The notes beneath the pieces are model-generated. The model searched no databases. It was given only the letters and a program-made list of their open reading frames with translations, and was not told where the DNA came from. A DNA stretch of 64,000 nucleotides. Source: Octopus vulgaris (lineage: Eukaryota). Every line of letters begins with the position of its first letter. Position 1 is the stretch's first letter. The position numbers and the translations under genes are program-made. Location of the stretch: positions 154,442,001-154,506,000 of the forward strand of contig OX597816.1 in the NCBI GenBank assembly GCA_951406725.2. Direction: 5' to 3'. Below are positions 7,066-61,400 of this stretch, piece by piece.

Positions 7066-7830
7066 GTACAGGTAGGGGACTATTATATTATTCTTTTACC
7101 TCAACAAAATTTATCTGTCCCATGCCAGCATGAAAAAGTGGACATTAAAGTGATAATGATGATGATGATGATGATTAGTTCTCACAACAATAACATTTTA
7201 AAAATCCTTGTCTAATGTTTCGAGATTATCACAATCCCAATTTCAAAATAAGCTATTGCAATGGCATGTTTTCAATATAACATATTTAAAAGAGGAGTTG
7301 TTCCCTGTTTACATAGATACACATACACAGACACATATATGGATAATAATTGGCATTAGATTATCATTTATACCTATGAGAAAACCAGCTAGAATTTTGA
7401 AATTCTACAAATTTTAAGCTCAATTTTTGTAACAAAGAGTCCACATTGTTGAAGTTGTAAAAAAGAGCCATATTGTGAGATTTGCAAAATACTGCTGACT
7501 AAATAAGTGAAATAGATTGACTTGATATCATCGTTAAAATATATGAAAAACAGGATGTGCCTACTTACAGAGATGACCTTCCTTTTGAACAACAATTTCT
7601 TTTTAAGACAAATTAAGTATAAAAATTTGGAAACAGAAATGTAGAAATTATAGTACACAAACAGTATTAATAGTAACTATTTTAATTGGTTTAATTAAAA
7701 AGAATTGACCAATATACCTATGAAAATGTTTACAAAGCCCAAGATTACTGAAACACAAAATATTCTTAGTGGAACCATTTACATCAATCAGTTAAGCATT
7801 ACCCAAATGACAACTCAGTTGAAAACTATG

Positions 7831-8510
7831 TATTTACATTCAACGGATATTTGTCCTCATCTTGTTTGTTGTTAACACATTTCAGCTGATGTACCCTCCA
7901 GCCTTCATCAGGTGTCTTGGGGAAATTTTGAACCTGGGTTCTCATTCCTAAGGTATTTTTCAATGTTATCATTCTTCATATTATTCAAGTCACTGCTTGG
8001 AATCAAACTCGGAATCTTGGTGTTAGTAGCCTGTGCTCTTAACCGTGGGCAATTATGGAGTGAATTTTAGGGCTTATAAATTTAATATTTTTTTCTATCC
8101 TTCCTTAATACTGGTTCCCATATGCTGCTCATATCTGCTCTCAGTCTGCTTAGGAGGTTGTTGTGTCCTAGCATATGTGCTGCTTCTTTTAGTTTTCATA
8201 TTTTCCATTAATGTTCTCTATCTATTATTTTAACTTCGTTCCACAGGTGGTCTCCAGTTTTCCATACATGATCAGCTATACCTGATTTATCAATATCTCC
8301 TGGTGTTTTAGCTTTGAGATGTTCATCTACCCTATTTTGAGGGGCAGCATGTTTCGCCTTTGTATAACCTGCCACAGCTGCATGGGATGGAATACATGCA
8401 GTCTTTGGTCATATTCTCTTCTATTGGTGGTTTTACTCAAAGGAGATATTTGCAAAGTGTTGTATTACTCTTGAATACTGTCCTGATGTCATATGGGCTG
8501 CATATCTTTT
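7831..8510 (-). mobile_element. Penelope (Poseidon-like) 3' fragment: GIY-YIG, tRNA-like segment and HHR-bearing pLTR
   Basis: Minus translation DCMYSIPCSCGRLYKGETC...SGIADHVWKTGDH...LKEAAHM; its 3' UTR is an inverted copy of 8790-9090. Confidence 0.88.
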
Positions 8511-8529
8511 GTATACAGTGTAAAGAGAG

Positions 8530-9126
8530 GGATAGCTCAGTACCTAAAACCTCATGCAAGGAATATAAGTTGTGATCATGATACACACCACAAAGAAATG
8601 ATCAAGCTCAATAATGATCTGTTAAGCAACAACTACCCCATAAGTATACTATCCACTCCAATTATGAAGAAGAGAGAGGATGAGGCCAATAAACTGTCCA
8701 CAGTCTGTCTACCCTATGCGAATGGCCTCTCCGAAAAGATACAAAAGATATGTGACCCATATGACATCAGGACAGTATTCAAGAGTAATATGGGAATCGT
8801 AATTAGGTAAGGATAGAAAAATATTAGATTTATAAGCCCTAAAATTCACTCCATTATTGCTCATGGGCAATAGGCATAGTGGTTAAGAGTGTGAGCTACT
8901 AACCCCAAGATTCTGAGTTCGATTCCAAGTAGTGACCTGAATAAGAATAATAACATCGAAAAATACCTTAGGAATGAGAACCCAGTTTTGAAATTTCCCC
9001 AAGACAGCTGATGAAGGCTGGAGGGTATATCAGCTGAAACGTTGTGTTAACGATAAACAAGATGAGGACAAATATCTGTCAAATGTAAATAATGTACATA
9101 ATTCCTCATCTCTTAAATATAGAACT
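8530..9126 (+). mobile_element. Second, inverted Penelope fragment with the GIY-YIG domain deleted
   Basis: ORF ...LLSNNYPISIL...VCLPYANGLSEKIQKICDPYDIRTVFKSN jumps at about 8790 directly to the ORF end and 3' UTR. Confidence 0.88.
9001..9048 (+). ncRNA. Minimal type-I hammerhead ribozyme in the PLE pLTR
   Basis: gacag-CTGATGA(9008-9014)-A-GGCTG-loop-CAGCT-GAAAC-GTT-gtgtt with palindromic stem III AACGTT; homologues at 7874-7917(-) and about 55947-55994(-). Confidence 0.8.
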
Positions 9127-9327
9127 GTACTACTATGTATATTTTTGTCCTCCCACACTTTACAGATTGACAAAAAGGCTAAGGCAAATGTTATTAAAAA
9201 ATATTTTAATAGCATTAACATGAAAGGATGCAATGTGTTTCATTTACTTTTGAAAATATGTTCCAAATCATAACTGCTAATCATGATAAGCTGTTGTTTA
9301 ATATCCATGTTTCATACTGGCATACAC

Positions 9328-19273: not shown

Positions 19274-20974
19274 CAGTTTGGTTTTGTGCCAGGAACAAGC
19301 ACCACTGATGCTATATTTCTGGTAAGATAGCTGCAGGAGAAATTCCTAGCCAAAGATAAACCTCTGTATTTGGCCTTTGTTGACTTGGAGAAAGCTTTTG
19401 ACAGGGATCCCCGATCCCTTATCTGGTGGTCAGTGTGGAAACTAGGGATATACAAGTGGTTGGTGAGAGCTGTACAAGCCATGTATAAGGATGCTACCAG
19501 TAGGTGAGGGTTGGCAATGAGTACAGTGAAGAATTCAGGGTACAAGTAGGGGTTCACCAAGGATCAGTGCTCAGCCCCCTCTTGTTCATCATAGTCCTCC
19601 AGGCAATAACAGTGGAATTTATGACAGGCTGCTCCTGGGAGCTCCTCTTTGCTGATGTCTTTGCTCTAATAGCTGAATCACTACCAGAACTAGAGAAATT
19701 TCAGGTATGGAAGCAAGGTCTAGAATCAAAGGACCTTAGAGTTAACCTAGCAAAACCAAAGTAGTAGTAAATAGGAGGGTAGACAAATCATAAATCCATT
19801 CAGGTAGATGGCAATCTGTAGGAAAGACGTAGGTAGAAACTCTATAAGATGCACCTGGTGTAAGCTTTGGACACATAAAAAGTTCCGCAATATCAGAGGA
19901 AGGTCAACAAGGAAGCTAGCTTTTGTATGTGGAAGATGCACAGGTACAATAAATACTGAAAATGTGCAGAAAATAAACTGCCAGGGAGACAAGCTAGAGG
20001 TAGTAGATAGCCTCTGTTATCTAGGTGACTGAGTTAGTAGTAGAGAGGGATACTCCGAGAGCATAGCTGTGAGGAAAAGATTAGGCTGGCCAGCTCAGAG
20101 AGCTCCTACCTCTGTTTGCAATAAAGGGCCTTTCTCTCAGAGTGAAAGGCAGAATTTATGTACCTGTGTGCAAACTGCCATACTACATGGCAGTGAAACA
20201 TGGGCTGTGACATTCAAGGACATGTGTAGGCGTGAAAGAAAGACAGTATGCTTTGTTGGTTCTACAATGTAAGTGTGCATGTTCAGAGTGTAAGCATAAG
20301 AAGCAGCAGATGTGGTGTGCAAGAGAGAGAAACAAGTGTGCTGGTATGGTTATGTGATGTGTATGGACAAGGGCAGCTGTGTAAAGAAGTGCTGATCTCT
20401 AACTGTGATAGAGGTGGACCCAAGAAGACGTGATGAAGTGGTGAAGCAAGAACTTTGAACTTTGAGCCTCACAGAGGCAATGATTAGTGACTGAGACCTT
20501 TGGTGATAGGCTGTGCTTGAGAAGTCACATCAAGCCAAATGAAATTGTAAACTTGGTTGTTGTTGGTGTCACATAATAGGTACCCATGCCAGTGGCACAT
20601 TTGAGTATTGGGCCTCATGGCGACAAAGTTCCTTTCAAGCATTGGGCCGCAAAGTGGCTGAGTTCCTTTTAATTGTTGGGCCTCATGGAGGCAGTGATCG
20701 AGACCTTTAGCATTACATCATGCTTGAGAAGACCCATCAAGCTGAGCAAAATCGCAGTCATGGCAGATAGTGGTGTCATGCAAATGGCACCCATGCTGGT
20801 GGCGCGTAAAAGCACCCATTACATTCTCGGAGTGGTTGGCGTTGGGAAGGGCATCCAGCCATAGAAAACAATGCCAAATCAGACAGGAGTCTGGTGCAGC
20901 CTCCCAACATACCAGCCCAGGTCAAACCATCCGACCCATGCCAGCATGGATGACAGACGTTAAATGATGATGAT
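19274..20974 (+). mobile_element. 5'-truncated RTE LINE (RT, Cys/His finger, 3' UTR, (GAT)n tail)
   Basis: QFGFVPGTSTTDAIF, FVDLEKAFD, VGVHQGSVLSPLLF, ELLFADV, LHGSETW; contains stops and frameshifts. Confidence 0.95.
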
Positions 20975-21590: not shown

Positions 21591-21873
21591 AACAATTGCA
21601 GCGTGGAAGGTGTTTATAAGCCATTTAAGAAACACACAAAAGCCGTTTGATTCACTCCAACATTTAAGTTTAATTTGTCAAAATATTTTCGTCGCTAAAA
21701 TCCGCGACCTGTTCACTGACAAAGTCCGTGCAGCACGGACTTTGTCAGTGAACAGGTCGCGGATTTTAGCGACGAAAATATTTTGACAAATTAAACTTAA
21801 ATGTTGGAGTGAATCAAACGGCTTTTGTGTGTTTCTTAAATGGCTTATAAACACCTTCCATGCTGCAATTGTT
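21591..21873. repeat. Near-perfect palindrome with 141-bp arms and a 1-nt spacer
   Basis: Centre gtccgtgc-a-gcacggac at 21732; one mismatch (gcagcgtgg vs gcagcatgg). Confidence 0.97.
21741..21790 (+). ncRNA. Hammerhead ribozyme with a G3-C8 core variant
   Basis: TTTGTCA-GTGAACA-G-GTCGC-ggatttta-GCGAC-GAA-AATATT-T-TGACAAA; mirror copy at 21674-21723(-). Confidence 0.7.
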
Positions 21874-24224: not shown

Positions 24225-24426
24225 TTACGGAGATGTACTCGCATAGCAAGTAATTTGATCTGAGATCGTGTGCTGAAACGAAAACAATTGCAGCGTGGGA
24301 GGTGTTTATAAGCCATTTAAGAAACACACAAAAGCCGTTCGATTCACTCCAACATTTAAGTTTAATTTGTCAAAATATTTTCGTCGCTAAAATCCGCGAC
24401 CTATTCACTGACAAAGTCCGTGCTGC
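24225..24426 (-). mobile_element. Third copy of the HHR-bearing repeat (about 200 bp) that forms the 21.7-kb palindrome
   Basis: Near-identical reverse complement of 21730-21931; the HHR core here reads GTGAATA (24366-24415). Confidence 0.92.
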
Positions 24427-24484
24427 ATCTCTGTGTATATATATATACACACACACACACACACATATGTATATAGATACATAT

Positions 24485-26414
24485 ATCATCATCATCGTTT
24501 CATGTCCATTTTCCATGCTGTCATGGGTTGGACGGCTCGACTGGGATCTGCGAAGTCAGGAAGCTGCACCAGGCTCCAATCTGATCTGATGGTGTTTCTA
24601 CAGCTAGATGCTCTTTCTAACGCCAACCACTCCGAGCGTGTAGTGGGTTCTTTTAACGTGCCACCGGCACGGGGCCCAGAGTGGCTGGCATCAACCACAA
24701 TCGAATGGTGCCTTTTACGTGCCGCTGGCACGGGATTCCAGTCACAGCGGCACTGGCATCAGCCACGTTCGGATGATGCTTTTTATGTGCTACCGGCAGT
24801 GGGGGGTCACAACTTCAATTTCCATTCGATTTGATTTTGATATTGCTGATGTTGATGGACTTGACTCAATAGGTGTCCTCAAGTATGGCATGTCGCCCTA
24901 CGATCAAGGTACTTTTGAGTGGGCTGGTTATGCAACACTGGTGTAGGTTACAGCTGGTTATGTGAAGCTGGTGTAGGATATGCCATGAACTCACTTTATT
25001 TGATGGGTCTTCTCAGTCACATCATACCTCCTGAGGTTTCGGCTTTTTGTCATTGCCTCTGTGAGGCCCAACATTGGAAGGTCATGCTTCACCACCTCAT
25101 CCCATGTCTTCATGGGTCTCCCTCTACCCCAAATACCTTTCACTGTTTGGGAGTGGCACTTCTTCACACAGCTCTCCTCGTCCATCCACAATACATGCCC
25201 ATACCAATGCAAATGTCTCTCTTGCATGCCACATCCAATGCTTCTCATGTCTAATGTTTTTCTCAGGGCGCTTACACTCTGTCGTGTGTGCACAGTGACA
25301 TTACACATCCAGCAGATCATGCTAGCTTCATTTCTTTCAAGCCCACACATGTCTTCAGCAGTCACGGCCCATGTTTCACTGCTGTGAAGCATGGCAGTTC
25401 ACACACATGCATCGTACAATCTACCTTTCACTCTGAGCGAGAGGGCCTTTGTCACCAGAAGCTTTCTGAACTTTGCCCAGGCTATTCTTATTCTAATGGT
25501 AACACTCTCTGAGCATCCACCACCAAACAGACTAGGTAGTGGAAGCTATCAATTACTTCTAGTTTCTCCCTCTGGCATGTGATGGAGTCTGTTTTCTGAG
25601 CATCTGTGGTGTTTATTGCCCCTGTTCCTCTGCTGCACATGAAAGCTATCTTCTTGGTTAATCTTCCTTTGGTGTTGCTGCACCTCTTATATGTCCATAG
25701 CTTACACTGAGTAAATCTTATGGAGTTTCTACCTACACCTTTTCTACAGATCGAGTAGAGCCACTTACCTGAAGGGGTGTGTGATGTGTCCACCTTCCTA
25801 CTTACTAGAAGTTTGGTCTTTGTAACATTGACTCGAAGGCCTTCGATTCTAAACCTGGCTTCCACACTTTGAAGTTTCTTCTCTAGTTCCGGTAGTGATT
25901 CTGTTATGAGGGCTAGGTCCTCAGCATAGAGGAGCTCCCAGGGGCAACCTGTCTTGAATTCCTCTGTTATTGCCTGGAGGACTATGATGAATAAGATGGG
26001 CTGAGGGCTGACTCTTGGTGGGCCCCTAATTCTACCTGGAATTCTTCACTATACTCATTTCCAATCGTAACCCTACTGACGGCATCTCTTTATAGGGCCA
26101 GTACACCCCTTATTAACCATTTGTCAATCCCAAGTTTCTGCATCGCCCACCAAATAAGGGATTGGGGGACCCTGTCAAACACTTTCTCCAAGTCCACAAA
26201 AGCTAAATATAGGGGTTTATCTTTAGCTAGGTATTTCTCCTGCAGTTGCCGTACAATGAATATAGCATCAGTGGTGCTTCAACCTGGCACAAAACCAAAC
26301 TGCATTTCATCTAAGCGGACTCTCTCCCTAATTAGTTGGGCTATGACCCTCTCTGTGACCATCATCACCTGATCCAGCAGTTTGATACCCCTGTAGTTAT
26401 TTCTACCTAAAGCA
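24485..26414 (-). mobile_element. 5'-truncated RTE LINE
   Basis: NYRGIKLLDQVM...MQFGFVPG, ELLYAED, LHSSETW, WYGHV, (GAT)n tail. Confidence 0.95.
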
Positions 26415-36114: not shown

Positions 36115-36350
36115 ATTGTGTCCTTGAGCAAGATGCTTTATTTCACAGTGCTTCAGTTCACTCAGCTGGCAAAAATGAGTTGTACCTGTATTTCAAGGGG
36201 CCAGCCATGTCACACTGAATCTTGCTGAGAAGTATATGAAGGGCTACGTGTCTGTGGAGTGCTCAGCCACTTGCATGTTAATCTCACGAGCAAGCTGTTC
36301 TATTGATCGGATCAACTGGAAACCTCCTCGTTGTGACTGACGGAGTGCCA
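36115..36350 (+). mobile_element. SINE family A, 5'-truncated
   Basis: Matches 51900-52150. Confidence 0.8.
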
Positions 36351-42402: not shown

Positions 42403-42469
42403 TAAAGCATGAAAAACAGTTAAATTATGGAAAAATTAAATGAAATGTTTTTTAAAAATTATTTCCATA

Positions 42470-44060
42470 GTTTTCAATTACTCCAATGAACTTCCACATT
42501 GCATCAAAAAAAAAATTGTAATAGAAAGGCTAAAATTCATCTTGGAGAATAACTTCTTCGTCTTCAAAGACAACTTCTATCAACAAAAATCAGGGACTGC
42601 AATGGGTACGAGAATGGCTCCCATCTTTTTTGCTAACCTAGTCACGGGATATCTAGAAATCAGTCTTTATTGTAAGGTACTAGAAAAATATGGCAACACA
42701 TTCTCCCTCTACATAGAAAATAACTGGAAGAGGTATCTGGATGACTGCTTCATTCTTTGGCATGACAGTACAGAGAAACTTAAAGAATTTCAAATACTTA
42801 GAAATGGACTTTACATAAACATTCAATTTACCCTAACAACTTGCATTCCTTGACATTCTTAAGAAATCCAACAATAAAATAGAAACAGATATATACTCTA
42901 AGCCTACAGACTCCAAGCAGTATCTACTGTTCAACTCATGCCATCCCAGACACACTAGAATGAATATCCCCTTCAACCTGGCAAAAAGGATTTGTACTAT
43001 AGTTTCTAATACAAACACCAGGGACACACCACTTCATGAACTAAAGGATACACTCATCAGCAGGAATTACCCACCATCACTAATTGATATAGGCTTTCAA
43101 CGTGCCCTACAACTCAACATCCACAAACTCAGCCATCCCAAACTAAAGAAGGATTTATGGGTAAAAGCCCTACCATACATCTCCACACACAACCCACTTA
43201 ACAATGGAGCTTTTGACACCATCCTCCAGAAAATTTCCCTACTAAAAAGGGATCACAATGAATTTAATTCTCCAAATGCACACCATCACAACGAGCAAAA
43301 GACAACCCAAGTCTATGAAAAATCTCCTAACACAAGCTCAAGTACACTTTGCAACAATACTGAAGCTGTCAGTAAAAGAATGTGGAAGGGCTAACTGTGG
43401 TATATACATCAATCTAATTGAGGGATCAGAATTCCCTTTCAAACAGGGCCAATGTTTTACAGTAAAAAAGAACTTCATATGTGCTTTGCAAAACCTAATA
43501 TGCGTATTAACTTGCTCAGGGTGTCAAGAGCAGTACATAGGCCAAACCAGAAAATGTCTACGCCAAAGGATGACCCTACATAGATCCCAGATTAAAATTT
43601 GGGAATACAGAAAAAAAGCGTTCAGCGAACACATTGACATTTGCACCACTAACGAACAACCCAACTTTGGAATTTTTCCCCTCTATAAATTCAGGGATGA
43701 CGCAACCTATAATAGGCGCATTAGCAAAGAGTCATAGTTTATCGCAAAATATAAACCTCTTTTGAATGCTTCCACCACAAATGACACTACTACAAAGGCC
43801 TTAGAATAATATCCATGCAAATATTTAAAATATATTCAGAACAGTCATTACCCATAAATTTATTCAGAACAATTCCAATCATTACTACTATAGCCACAAC
43901 AGGTCACTTTTAAGTTACTTGACCATTTAAGAGGACTCCACCAATACTATTTAGCTTTCCATCAACTTTAACTAGAGGGCCAACACCAAAGGTACTAAAT
44001 ACCACCCACACCATCACTCCCCCCCCTGCTTGCGCCTTAAATTTATTTTCGCCAGTGTAT
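42470..44060 (+). mobile_element. Penelope-like element (Neptune-like): RT and GIY-YIG, frameshifted
   Basis: YQQKSGTAMGTRMAP..ANL, WKRYLDDCF, NIPFNLAKRICTI, CGRANCGI, NLICVLTCSGCQEQYIGQT..LRQRMTLH. Confidence 0.95.
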
Positions 44061-51828: not shown

Positions 51829-52151
51829 GAAGGTGCATGGCTTAGTGGCTGGGGTATTCAGCTCATGATCATAAAGTTGCGAGTTCCATTCCCAGCAGCA
51901 CATTGTTTCCTTGAGGAAAACACTTTTTCATATTACTCCAGTCCACTCAGCTGGCAAAAATGAGTAGTGCCTGTATTTCAAATGGCCAGCCTTTCCATTC
52001 TGTGTCACATTGAATCTCCCTGAGAGCTATGTTAAGGGTGTGTGTGTATGTGGAGTGCTCAGCCACTTGCACATTAATTTCACAAGCTGGCTGTTCCATC
52101 GATTAGATCAACTGGAACCCACATTGTCATAACCAATGGAGTACCTGTTAC
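51829..52151 (+). mobile_element. Full-length SINE family A with an 11-bp TSD
   Basis: A-box TGGCTTAGTGG and B-box GAGTTCCATTCC; TSD CTCTTCATTAT at 51818-51828 and 52152-52162. Confidence 0.9.
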
Positions 52152-54456: not shown

Positions 54457-55880
54457 TTATCATCATCATCATTTAACATCTGCCTTCCATGCTAGCATAG
54501 GATGGATGGTTCAACAGGAATTCAAAAGTCAGAAGACTGCAGTAAGCGCTGTTGTCTGCATTAGCATGCTTTCTACAGTTGGCTGCCCTTCTTTATGCAA
54601 CCTCTAGCGTATACTGGGTGCTTTTTACATGGCATCAACAGCAGTGATGCCATCAAGTAACTAGCAAGACAAAATCCCTCCACAAAGGCATGAAGTAGTT
54701 TTGAGGGACAGAAAAAAGAAGCCTTGTATTAGAGGGGAAAAATGTTTAACTCAAGTGGAGAGAAAGAGGTGGTGAGGGGGAAGGGGTAAGTGGACTGGGG
54801 ATTGGAGAATGCGAGTGGGTGAGTGAATTCATGAGATTGTGAAAGGAGAATGATAGATTAAAGGTGGGATGTAATGAAGGAGAATAATAAAGGGTGGAAT
54901 GTAATGAGGGGGCATAGATATTGAGAGAGGGTATTAGATTATGTTGTAGGCGAAAAGATTCATCAGGGACATACTGTATGCAAGTGGGTACTTGATGGAG
55001 CAGGTTAGGGCATGCAGCAGGTGGTGAGCATGGGTAGAGGAAGAGAGTGTTATGAAGATGGGTTGTGGGGGAGGTTTGACAGGGTACGGATTGTATGCAG
55101 TGGGGAGGTGCAGACATGAATGACATACCTTTTTGGCCTCAATTTAACTTTGTTGGGTGAGTCTTCTCAAGCACAGCAAATTGCCAGTTGTTTAAGTAAC
55201 AGCCCATGTTTTGCTGCCATGTGGCATAGCTGTCTGTACACAGACATCATACAATCTGCTTTTCACTCTGAGGGAGAGGTCTTTTGTTACCAACAAAGGT
55301 AATAGCTCCCTGGACTTTGCCCGGCCTGTTCTTATTTTAGCAACTAGGCTTTCAGAGCAACCTCCTCCATTGCTAATTTGGTCACCTAGGTAATGTAAAC
55401 TATCTCCTTTTTCTAAGGATTCTCCTCGACATTTGAGGAAGTCTGTTTCCTGTACATTCTTGGTGTTTATTGTACCTGCATATCTGTGACATACAAAGAT
55501 TACTTTCTCTGTTAACCTTCCTGTGATACTGCTACACCGCTTTTGTGTCCATAGCTTTCACTGGGCATACTGTATGGAATTTCTACCTACACTTTTTTTT
55601 ACACATCAAGTATAGGCCAGTTTCTTGAAGGGATTAGTAATTTGTCTACTTTTCCTGCTTACTAGTACTTTGGTCTTTGCTAAGTTAACTATAATTTGAT
55701 TTAGTCCATGCATCCACACTTGAAATTTCTCAAATTCTAGTGGAAATTTAGCTACAAGAACAAGGTCATTGGCATAGAGAAGCTTCCCAGAACAACCAGT
55801 TGTAAATTTTGGTTACAGCCTGGAGGACATTGATAAAGAAGAGGGGACTGAGAACTGATCCTTGATGAACTACCTACACA
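54457..55880 (-). mobile_element. Degenerate RTE LINE (tail 54457-54680, RT 55125-55880) interrupted by purine-rich low-complexity sequence
   Basis: Minus strand HQGSVLSPLFF, LLYANDL and the finger region; (CAT)n tail. Confidence 0.8.
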
Positions 55881-55891
55881 TTAAATTTGTT

Positions 55892-56127
55892 CATTATTTA
55901 CATTATTTACATTTGATGGGTATTTGTCCTCATCTTCTTTGTTGTTAACACAACGTTTTGGCTGATATGCTCTCCAGCCTTCATCAGGTATCTTGGGGTA
56001 ATTTCGAATTTGGATTCTCATTCCTAAGGTATTTTTCGATGTTATTATTATTCAGGTCACTGCCTGGAATCGAACTCAGAATCTTGGGGTTAGTATCCCG
56101 CACTCTTAACCACTACGCCATATGCCC
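55892..56127 (-). mobile_element. Solo tRNA-head plus HHR element (SINE-like derivative of the PLE 3' end)
   Basis: Starts GGGCATATGGCGTAGTGG (A-box), has GAGTTCGATTCC (B-box), then the same pLTR and HHR as 8870-9095, and ends in (TGTAAATAA)2. Confidence 0.88.
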
Positions 56128-60159: not shown

Positions 60160-61400
60160 ATCATCATCATCATCGTTTAACGCCTGCTTTCCATGTTAGC
60201 ATGGGTTGGATGGTTCAACTGGGGTCTGGGAAGCCAGAAGGCTGCACCAGGCCCAGTCTGATCTGCCAGTGTTTCTACAGCTTGATGCCCTTCCTAATGC
60301 CAACCACTTCATGAGTGTAGTGGGTGCTTTTTACGTGCCAACGGCACAGGTGCCAGACGAGGCTGGCAAACGGCCACAATCGGATGGTGCTTTTTACGTG
60401 TCACCAGCATGGAGACCAGACAAGGCTGGCAATGGCCACGATTGGATGGTCCTTTTTATGTGCCACCGGCACGGAGGCCAGTCAAGGCGGAGCTGGCTAC
60501 GGCCACGTTTGGATGGTTCTCTTACGTGCCACCGGCACTGGTATCACAGCTACAAATTCCATTGATGATGATCGATTACGATTTTGATTTCGATTTTTGA
60601 TTTTCACTTGCCTCAAGAGGTCTTCACAAGTAGAGTTTTGTGTCCCAAGAAGGAAAGGAATGCATAAGTGGACTGGCTACATCCCAGGTAGAGGCCAACG
60701 AGTTATGGCCTCACTTGTCCTGCCAGGTCTTCTCACGCACAGCATACTTCCAAAGGTCTCGGTCTCTAGTCACTTCCTTGGTGAGACCTAAAGTTCGAAG
60801 GTTGTGCTTCACCACCTTGTACCAGGTTTTCCTGGGTCTACCTCTTCCACAGGTTCCCTCAACCGCTAGGGTGTGGCACTTTTCGACACAGCTATCTTCA
60901 TCCATTCTCGCTATATGACCATACCAGTGCAAACGTCTCTCTTGCACACCACAACTGATGCTTCTTAGGTCCAACTTTTCTCTCAAGGTACTTACACTCT
61001 GTCGAGTATGAACACTGACATTACACATCCATCGAAGCATACTGGCTTCATTTCTTGCGAGCTTACGCATATCCTCAGCAGTCACAGCTCATGTTTCACT
61101 GCCATGTAGCATGGCTGTTCATACACATGCATCATACAATCTGCCTTTTACTCTGAGCAAGGGGCCTTTTGTCACCAGCAGAGGTAAGAGCTCTCTGAAC
61201 TTTGTCCAGGCTATTCTTACTCTAGCAGTTACACTTTCAGCACACCAGCCCCCGCTGCTGACTTGGTCACCTAGGTAACGGAAGCTATCAACTATTTCTA
61301 GTTTTTCTCCCTGGAATGTGGCAGAAGATGGTCTCTGCGTATTTTCAGTGTTTATTGCTCCTGAGCATCTGCCACATACAAAAACTATCTTCCTAGTTAG
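60160..61400 (-). mobile_element. Relatively young 5'-truncated RTE LINE
   Basis: 124-aa ORF ...ERRLHWYGHIARM...GRGRPRKTW; 3' UTR with subrepeats of about 63 bp; (GAT)n tail. Confidence 0.95.

Follow-up and report, generated by a model that had tools for sequence, protein, structure and literature searches.

Downstream of the coding region of a decayed Penelope-like element (PLE) in Octopus vulgaris, a tRNA-like segment precedes a hammerhead ribozyme, which raises the question of whether this segment serves as a promoter and, if so, of what. The initial annotation of the locus proposed that the family had captured a tRNA or SINE head as an internal Pol III promoter of its pseudo-LTR, with the hammerhead processing the transcript. 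Here, we analyzed the structure of the insertion, the place of the head in the family and short copies that begin at the head. The family-level evidence consists of three copies in the window (the whole stretch of 64,000 nt analyzed) and of read alignments from four runs, where X23 and X24 are raw RNA of one study (~6% of each sampled) and X9 and X1 are contig sets.

Results

Structure of the insertion

The 64-kb window is AT-rich animal DNA, rich in microsatellites and short repeats. The locus contains one Penelope-like insertion, now decayed, in which two back-to-back arms meet at 8514/8515; it has a target duplication of 9 bp and a tail of 34 nt (Table 1). The three nucleotides of the left target duplication missing from the window are supplied by one contig each in X9 and X1. 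Because the duplication flanks the pair, the two arms represent one insertion, and therefore they are not independent witnesses for the head. An origin of the arms from two subfamilies is ruled out by the shared duplication, and the differences between the arms at 8890-8894 fit CpG decay.

Table 1. Features of the Penelope-like insertion and of the short copy, in window positions.
Feature	Position	Strand	Remarks
Target duplication, left copy	7825..7830	+	6 of 9 nt present in the window
Left arm	7831..8514	-	5'-truncated PLE copy, terminates at the short 3' end
Left-arm head remnant	7988..8044	-	first 16 nt deleted; B box with one C>T change
Right arm	8515..9129	+	5'-truncated PLE copy with full head, hammerhead and tail
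Likely stop codon (TAA) of the PLE ORF	8833..8835	+	29 nt before the head
tRNA-like head, 73 nt	8865..8937	+	decayed cloverleaf; candidate parent tRNA-Arg(ACG)
A box, AGGCATAGTGG	8872..8882	+	
B box, GAGTTCGATTCC	8915..8926	+	
Candidate start codon of the next unit's ORF	8974..8976	+	inferred from the open frame
Minimal type I hammerhead	9003..9048	+	core 9008-9014 (CTGATGA) and 9036-9039
PLE tail, 34 nt	9096..9129	+	between the main 3' ends 9095/9096 and 9127/9129
Target duplication, right copy, 9 bp, ACTACTATG	9129..9137	+	
Stand-alone unit	55893..56127	-	head, spacer, hammerhead and short 3' end

The left arm comprises the linker and GIY-YIG region, interrupted by stops and frameshifts, the 3' UTR, the head remnant and a broken hammerhead, and in the right arm a deletion near 8790 has taken ~340 nt from the endonuclease region. 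Two nucleotides of the left arm at 8088 are missing from 215/307 X23 reads, and their removal puts this arm in the frame of the likely stop codon. The frame from the candidate start codon is open up to the element end in two copies and contains one stop in the right arm. Among the loose ends in the runs, the main read ends lie 34 nt apart at the two 3' ends given in Table 1; the real end of the element, previously placed at 9095, is thus at 9127-9129. Two 3' ends at this distance match the tail that PLEs bear on one end (PMC8557442, PMC11167929).

Translations of the arms agree at 57-67% with P0003, one of the RT-plus-endonuclease proteins, and also match P0007; these matches lie in the linker and endonuclease regions. 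P0003 and P0007 carry PF00078 and relatives carry PF01541 or the GIY-YIG name; from the Pfam names behind these two accessions we take the domain order to be RT followed by a C-terminal GIY-YIG. A Pfam search alone gave no match to the two short arm remnants. Judged by these protein matches, the element has RT and C-terminal GIY-YIG predicted in one ORF and corresponds to an EN+ Penelope-like element, with an inverted 5'-truncated arm, a tail of 30-40 nt on one end and a hammerhead in the pseudo-LTR. It presumably belongs to the Penelope/Poseidon clade, given the domain order and similarity. At the C-terminus of P0036, the PLE ORF reads, by eye, into a translated tRNA-type SINE head, that is, a SINE inserted in a PLE body.

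No full-length member of the family was obtained from the window or from public contig searches. Family DNA gave 0 matches both with the spacer pattern against public viral contigs and with the hammerhead pattern against metagenome and GTDB contigs, and P0003 as query gave zero confirmed loci in metagenome or viral contigs. Antisense spurious ORFs, used to search for the flanks of other copies, gave one null result and one with two unrelated matches.

The tRNA-like head

The tRNA-like segment after the PLE stop was confirmed with its boxes and loop, 29 nt past the likely stop codon. A box, loop and B box occupy the positions expected of a 73-nt tRNA, and CTACTAA (8896-8902) falls exactly on tRNA positions 32-38 when 8865 is counted as position 1. 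At A-box base 8872, the canonical T was found in 230/280 and 262/312 X23 reads. A search for A+B box pairs with at most one A-box mismatch returned two in the window (8872-8926 and 56120-56066), compared with a mean of 0.1 and a maximum of 1 in 20 block shuffles; a stricter A+B box pattern recovered neither window copy. That both arms carry the head, as had been stated, holds in full for the right arm and in part for the left, where the initial 16 nt, and with them most of the A box, are deleted.

ARAGORN reported 0 tRNA genes in the head, and Rfam gave no tRNA match to either intact head at E<=10. With its acceptor, D and T stems broken, the head is without the cloverleaf of a tRNA gene: the boxes were kept and the fold lost, as in SINE heads. 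Compared ungapped with three eukaryote-type tRNA-Arg(ACG) genes, the head is identical at 39-46 of 73 positions; shuffled heads average 30 identities, with 39-40 as the highest. All four matches of the degenerate tRNA pattern were Arg(ACG)-like, three of them named by ARAGORN, but this pattern was biased in its design. In the set from the window-only pattern (121 loci), His, Gln and Cys tRNAs of prokaryotes and viruses, which had been selected for exact boxes, score equally overall, with up to 50/73. Outside the boxes, Arg(ACG) agrees at 29-30 of 54 positions against a mean of 19.3 and a maximum of 27 for 78 others, a comparison that is still biased. The best candidate for the parent is tRNA-Arg(ACG), but no more than a candidate, because the first pattern was biased and the comparison covered eukaryote tRNAs in part. 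A reading of ACT as the anticodon of a tRNA-Ser was ruled out, the box spacing being that of a 73-nt short-arm tRNA.

A 12-bp palindrome (8859-8870) spans the border between UTR and head and could be a truncation or fold-back site; the X1 loose-end consensus lengthens it to ~18 nt. Between head and hammerhead, the spacer contains a second B-box-like word (8984-8995), which is best discernible in the left arm and the 56-kb copy. Further A/B box pairs occur at 51838-51892 (+) and 12803-12749 (-), the former in a repeat also present at 627-919 and 36116-36321 and probably another tRNA-derived SINE family. Of other repeats in the window, a 283-bp near-perfect self-palindrome (21591-21873, 98.9%) with a partial second copy (24226-24427, 97-98%) is a young MITE-like or fold-back element, and the fragments at 19274-20533, 24646-26302, 55195-55870 and 60168-61399, which are 69-79% alike, form one long repeat family, likely a LINE.

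The hammerhead

A hammerhead had been noted about 80 nt downstream, and the core CTGATGA indeed starts 81 nt after the B box. The minimal-hammerhead descriptor gave one match across the 64-kb window (9008-9043), and Rfam over the locus gave no hammerhead match. Stem I is formed by 9003-9007/9044-9048, with the predicted cut at 9043/9044; there is an extra base before stem II, and stem III is the loopless palindrome ACGT. All three window copies carry a damaging change. In the right arm, this is a stem I mismatch at 9007, where G>C in 1087/1119 X23 reads restores pairing, and in the left arm three core nucleotides are missing. The minimal form is that of animal PLEs and is inactive as a monomer (PMC4209133). 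Since the predicted cut separates the head from the tail, copies with both derive from uncut RNA. Processing of the transcript by the hammerhead is therefore not upheld: a cut would part head from tail, the RNA reads are without a pile of ends, and in the anole cleavage is dispensable in vitro (PMC11167929).

The head as part of the family

In order to distinguish a family trait from a later insertion into one copy, UTR-only reads were expected to align to the left arm and UTR-plus-head reads to the right arm, the sole arm with the first 16 nt of the head. Simulated depth ratios of 8855 to 8064 were 0.89 for UTR plus head and 0.01-0.04 for UTR alone, and observed depths were 353/296 in X23 and 143/264 in X24. 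By hand arithmetic, ~70% or more of the UTR-bearing reads run into the head, a rough figure because the aligner of the simulation differs from that of the read-alignment tool. Position 8855 of the right arm is covered by 91 and 84 distinct contigs. Most UTR-bearing reads thus continue into the head, which belongs to the PLE family as the initial annotation had maintained. Whether the boxes are more conserved than their flanks says little in neutrally decaying dead copies.

A decayed second, distant PLE family with RT and endonuclease remnants lies at 42452-43740 (+), 26-42% identical to query proteins. The head looks family-specific, because this second PLE has no box pair behind its ORF, and P0108, a protein of a related family with an antisense hammerhead-like stretch, has no match to the head beside that stretch.

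Short copies starting at the head

The unit at 56127-55893, the one head-initiated copy readable in full, begins at tRNA position 1 inside a microsatellite and contains nothing of the PLE ORF or UTR. It is 87-90% identical to the right arm, with perfect A and B boxes (56120-56066), a G12>A change in the hammerhead core and no clear target duplication.

The reads indicate many such copies. With both arms summed by hand, the ratio of head to UTR depth was 2.3 (X23) and 3.0 (X24), where expressed host loci, even single ones, can skew the RNA counts, and 2.7 (X9) and 3.6 (X1), where summed contig depth is not copy number. In X23, depth shows no upward trend across the endonuclease end (679, 671, 871 and 686), followed by 796 in the UTR and 1847 in the head. 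The same depth arithmetic puts head-covering reads without UTR at ~50% (X23) and ~70% (X24). Loose 5' ends at 8873 were found in 256 reads (X23), 224 reads (X24) and 171 contigs (X1), with a median of 47-50 nt unlike the PLE UTR, and 8873 is absent among the six X9 loose ends listed; loose ends were listed in part, with 3092 more. This pile-up of copy 5' ends fits a promoter starting at the head. Depth climbs further beyond the head (in the right arm of X23, 1212 at 8894, 2287 at 9007 and 3424 at 9052), and the head is therefore not the sole step; ordinary 5' truncation or sister families contribute.

Among the 15 joints listed (671 more exist), there are three in which the 5' end of the head is joined to part of the unit in inverted orientation (8044>9008, 8044>9079 and 8873>9062), a mark of PLE-type insertion, and none is a back-going joint of the kind expected of circular RNA. 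No head-to-tail array, as in non-LTR retrozymes, was found among the three window copies. In common with tRNA-derived SINEs, the unit has an A/B-box head and dispersed non-coding copies from the head; the 3' part is the end of a PLE pseudo-LTR and not of a LINE, nor an A-rich or simple-repeat tail.

In the RNA reads, both mate directions are equal and no place has many starts or ends. Since there is neither strand bias nor a pile of starts or ends, these reads resemble copies within host transcripts, and they are compatible with the presence as well as the absence of Pol III transcripts. At the loose ends 9095 and 7831, a common downstream flank was found in 795 and 405 RNA reads, respectively (agreement 0.70-0.74), so that a copy seems to lie within a single, strongly expressed host transcript.

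Discussion

A proposed Pol III promoter for short copies mobilised by the PLE

The order at the locus is stop codon, 29 nt, head, spacer, hammerhead and two PLE-type 3' ends. With a type 2 Pol III promoter, transcripts would uniformly begin at tRNA position 1. Many short copies begin at the head, which is therefore likely an internal Pol III promoter; the head-initiated stand-alone copies, missed by the initial annotation, are the strongest evidence for this. Based on sequence comparison and read depth, we consider that the head probably acts as a Pol III promoter that yields SINE-like copies of 230-265 nt, mobilised by the PLE by way of uncut transcripts. The A and B boxes would recruit TFIIIC and RNA would begin near tRNA position 1. 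The minimal hammerhead, uncut as a monomer, would let head and tail travel together, and the Penelope protein would begin reverse transcription at two internal sites, which lie ~50 and ~85 nt downstream of the predicted cleavage position, copying from the tail sites back to the 5' end of the RNA to give the short unit. For the Poseidon element of the anole, it has been shown that RT is initiated internally on uncut RNA, shortly downstream of the hammerhead, and that the two initiation sites delimit the tail; cleavage was dispensable for insertion in vitro (PMC11167929). Because RT would proceed back to the RNA 5' end, short copies would record where transcription starts. In a tandem, the start at the head would lie ~110 nt before the next ORF, the coding RNA more likely still being a Pol II product. 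The short units may be a true SINE that re-propagates or dead-end products of tandem master loci. The sole dissected Penelope promoter, from D. virilis, is internal and of Pol II type, which counts against Pol III (PMC2377424).

The head could instead drive the whole coding element, with Pol III reading from the upstream pseudo-LTR through the next ORF and the short copies arising as by-products of internal RT initiation. We regard this as unlikely. It would account for the head standing at the expected PLE promoter site, ~110 nt before the candidate start codon (PMC2377424), but an uncapped RNA of ~2.5 kb would have to be translated, and Pol III-driven elements have been argued to stay short (PMC10886601). 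The 709-nt ORF remnant contains zero T4 runs against five in 1289 nt of the second window PLE, yet this test is uninformative, because composition alone predicts the lack (shuffle mean 0.16, none in 85% of shuffles). The far-reaching form of this reading, that a coding Penelope swapped Pol II for a captured tRNA-Arg promoter, is transcribed by Pol III end to end and sheds from the same start the first documented Penelope-mobilised SINE, is a doubtful proposition too.

It is distinctly improbable that a SINE head lodged in the 3' UTR of the family founder as a mere passenger with no promoter role, and that the 5' ends reflect frequent truncation at the palindrome or at residual structure. The palindrome does sit at the head border, depth still rises downstream of the head and no RNA start is seen in the RNA reads; however, the palindrome stem is merely 4-5 bp, the stand-alone copy begins exactly at tRNA position 1 with perfect boxes, and behind the head no SINE body or A-tail can be distinguished. 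Still less probable, and in our judgment very much so, is the reverse history, in which an independent SINE made of a tRNA head and a captured PLE 3' end had spread before a tandem insertion in the PLE 3' end gave rise to the coding subfamily. The head-initiated reads are at least as numerous as the UTR-linked ones, the anole enzyme cuts inside its own pLTR junction (PMC11167929), and P0108 has its antisense hammerhead-like stretch with no adjacent head match, all of which such a history would accommodate. On the other hand, most UTR-bearing reads enter the head at one fixed junction, and this history differs from a Pol III promoter yielding PLE-mobilised copies mainly in the order of events.

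SINEs are defined as parasites of LINEs. If a Pol III promoter for PLE-mobilised copies is correct, a unit with a tRNA head that terminates at PLE tail sites, and that also serves as the 3' end of a coding Penelope, would reveal how a SINE can arise directly from a PLE pseudo-LTR, and such head-initiated units may explain part of the unclassified SINE mass in genomes of this kind. Because PLE RT starts internally, short copies may also map the PLE transcription start, and the promoter question would then be open to test from genome sequence alone.

Comparison with known systems

Among the matches listed in full-text literature searches, to which the comparison was confined, there was no tRNA head in any coding PLE and no SINE that depends on Penelope, and the available parts of PMC13282606, PMC8967140, PMC4758252, PMC3531059 and PMC9223172 contain no PLE-linked SINE. 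A LINE with a tRNA-like piece, RTE-1_DAn, is mentioned in PMC5786205.

[quoted passage not shown] It differs from them by the tRNA-derived A/B-box head in its pseudo-LTR, the described Penelope promoter being of the Inr/DPE Pol II type (PMC2377424). In Helenus, Cassandra and Ajax (TRIMp3; PMC10886601), a Pol III promoter derived from a small RNA likewise lies within the terminal repeat; these are non-autonomous LTR elements, whereas the element here is a PLE and the head is also present in coding members.

Among short non-coding repeats, the schistosome Sm-alpha and Sj-alpha also combine a type I hammerhead with a preceding Pol III promoter of tRNA origin (PMC2770079, PMC6765202). Compared by description only, Sm-alpha differs in being related to tRNA-Gln, often tandem and endowed with an active canonical hammerhead, and the available parts of these two papers name no coding partner that shares the unit. 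The octopus short unit, in contrast, also forms the 3' terminus of a coding PLE and stops at the tail sites of PLEs, which, if the proposed promoter is real, suggests an origin for tRNA-plus-hammerhead repeats of the Sm-alpha type. Animal non-LTR retrozymes are likewise short non-coding hammerhead units related to PLE pseudo-LTRs, and hammerhead repeats have been proposed to be non-autonomous PLE derivatives moved by PLEs (PMC7229834; 10.64898/2026.07.22.740005). Retrozymes are defined by tandem arrays and circular RNAs, with no tRNA head reported in the available parts of the same two sources, whereas the octopus copies are dispersed and begin at a promoter-like head.

With tRNA-derived SINEs, the unit shares kept boxes in a tRNA head and a 3' part in common with an autonomous partner. 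Octopus tRNA-derived SINEs were reportedly described by Ohshima & Okada in 1994 as OK, OR1 and OR2; set beside these by description only, the short form may already have been named as a SINE. The octopus unit differs from tRNA-derived SINEs in general in that its partner is a PLE, not a LINE, and its 3' end is the PLE tail.
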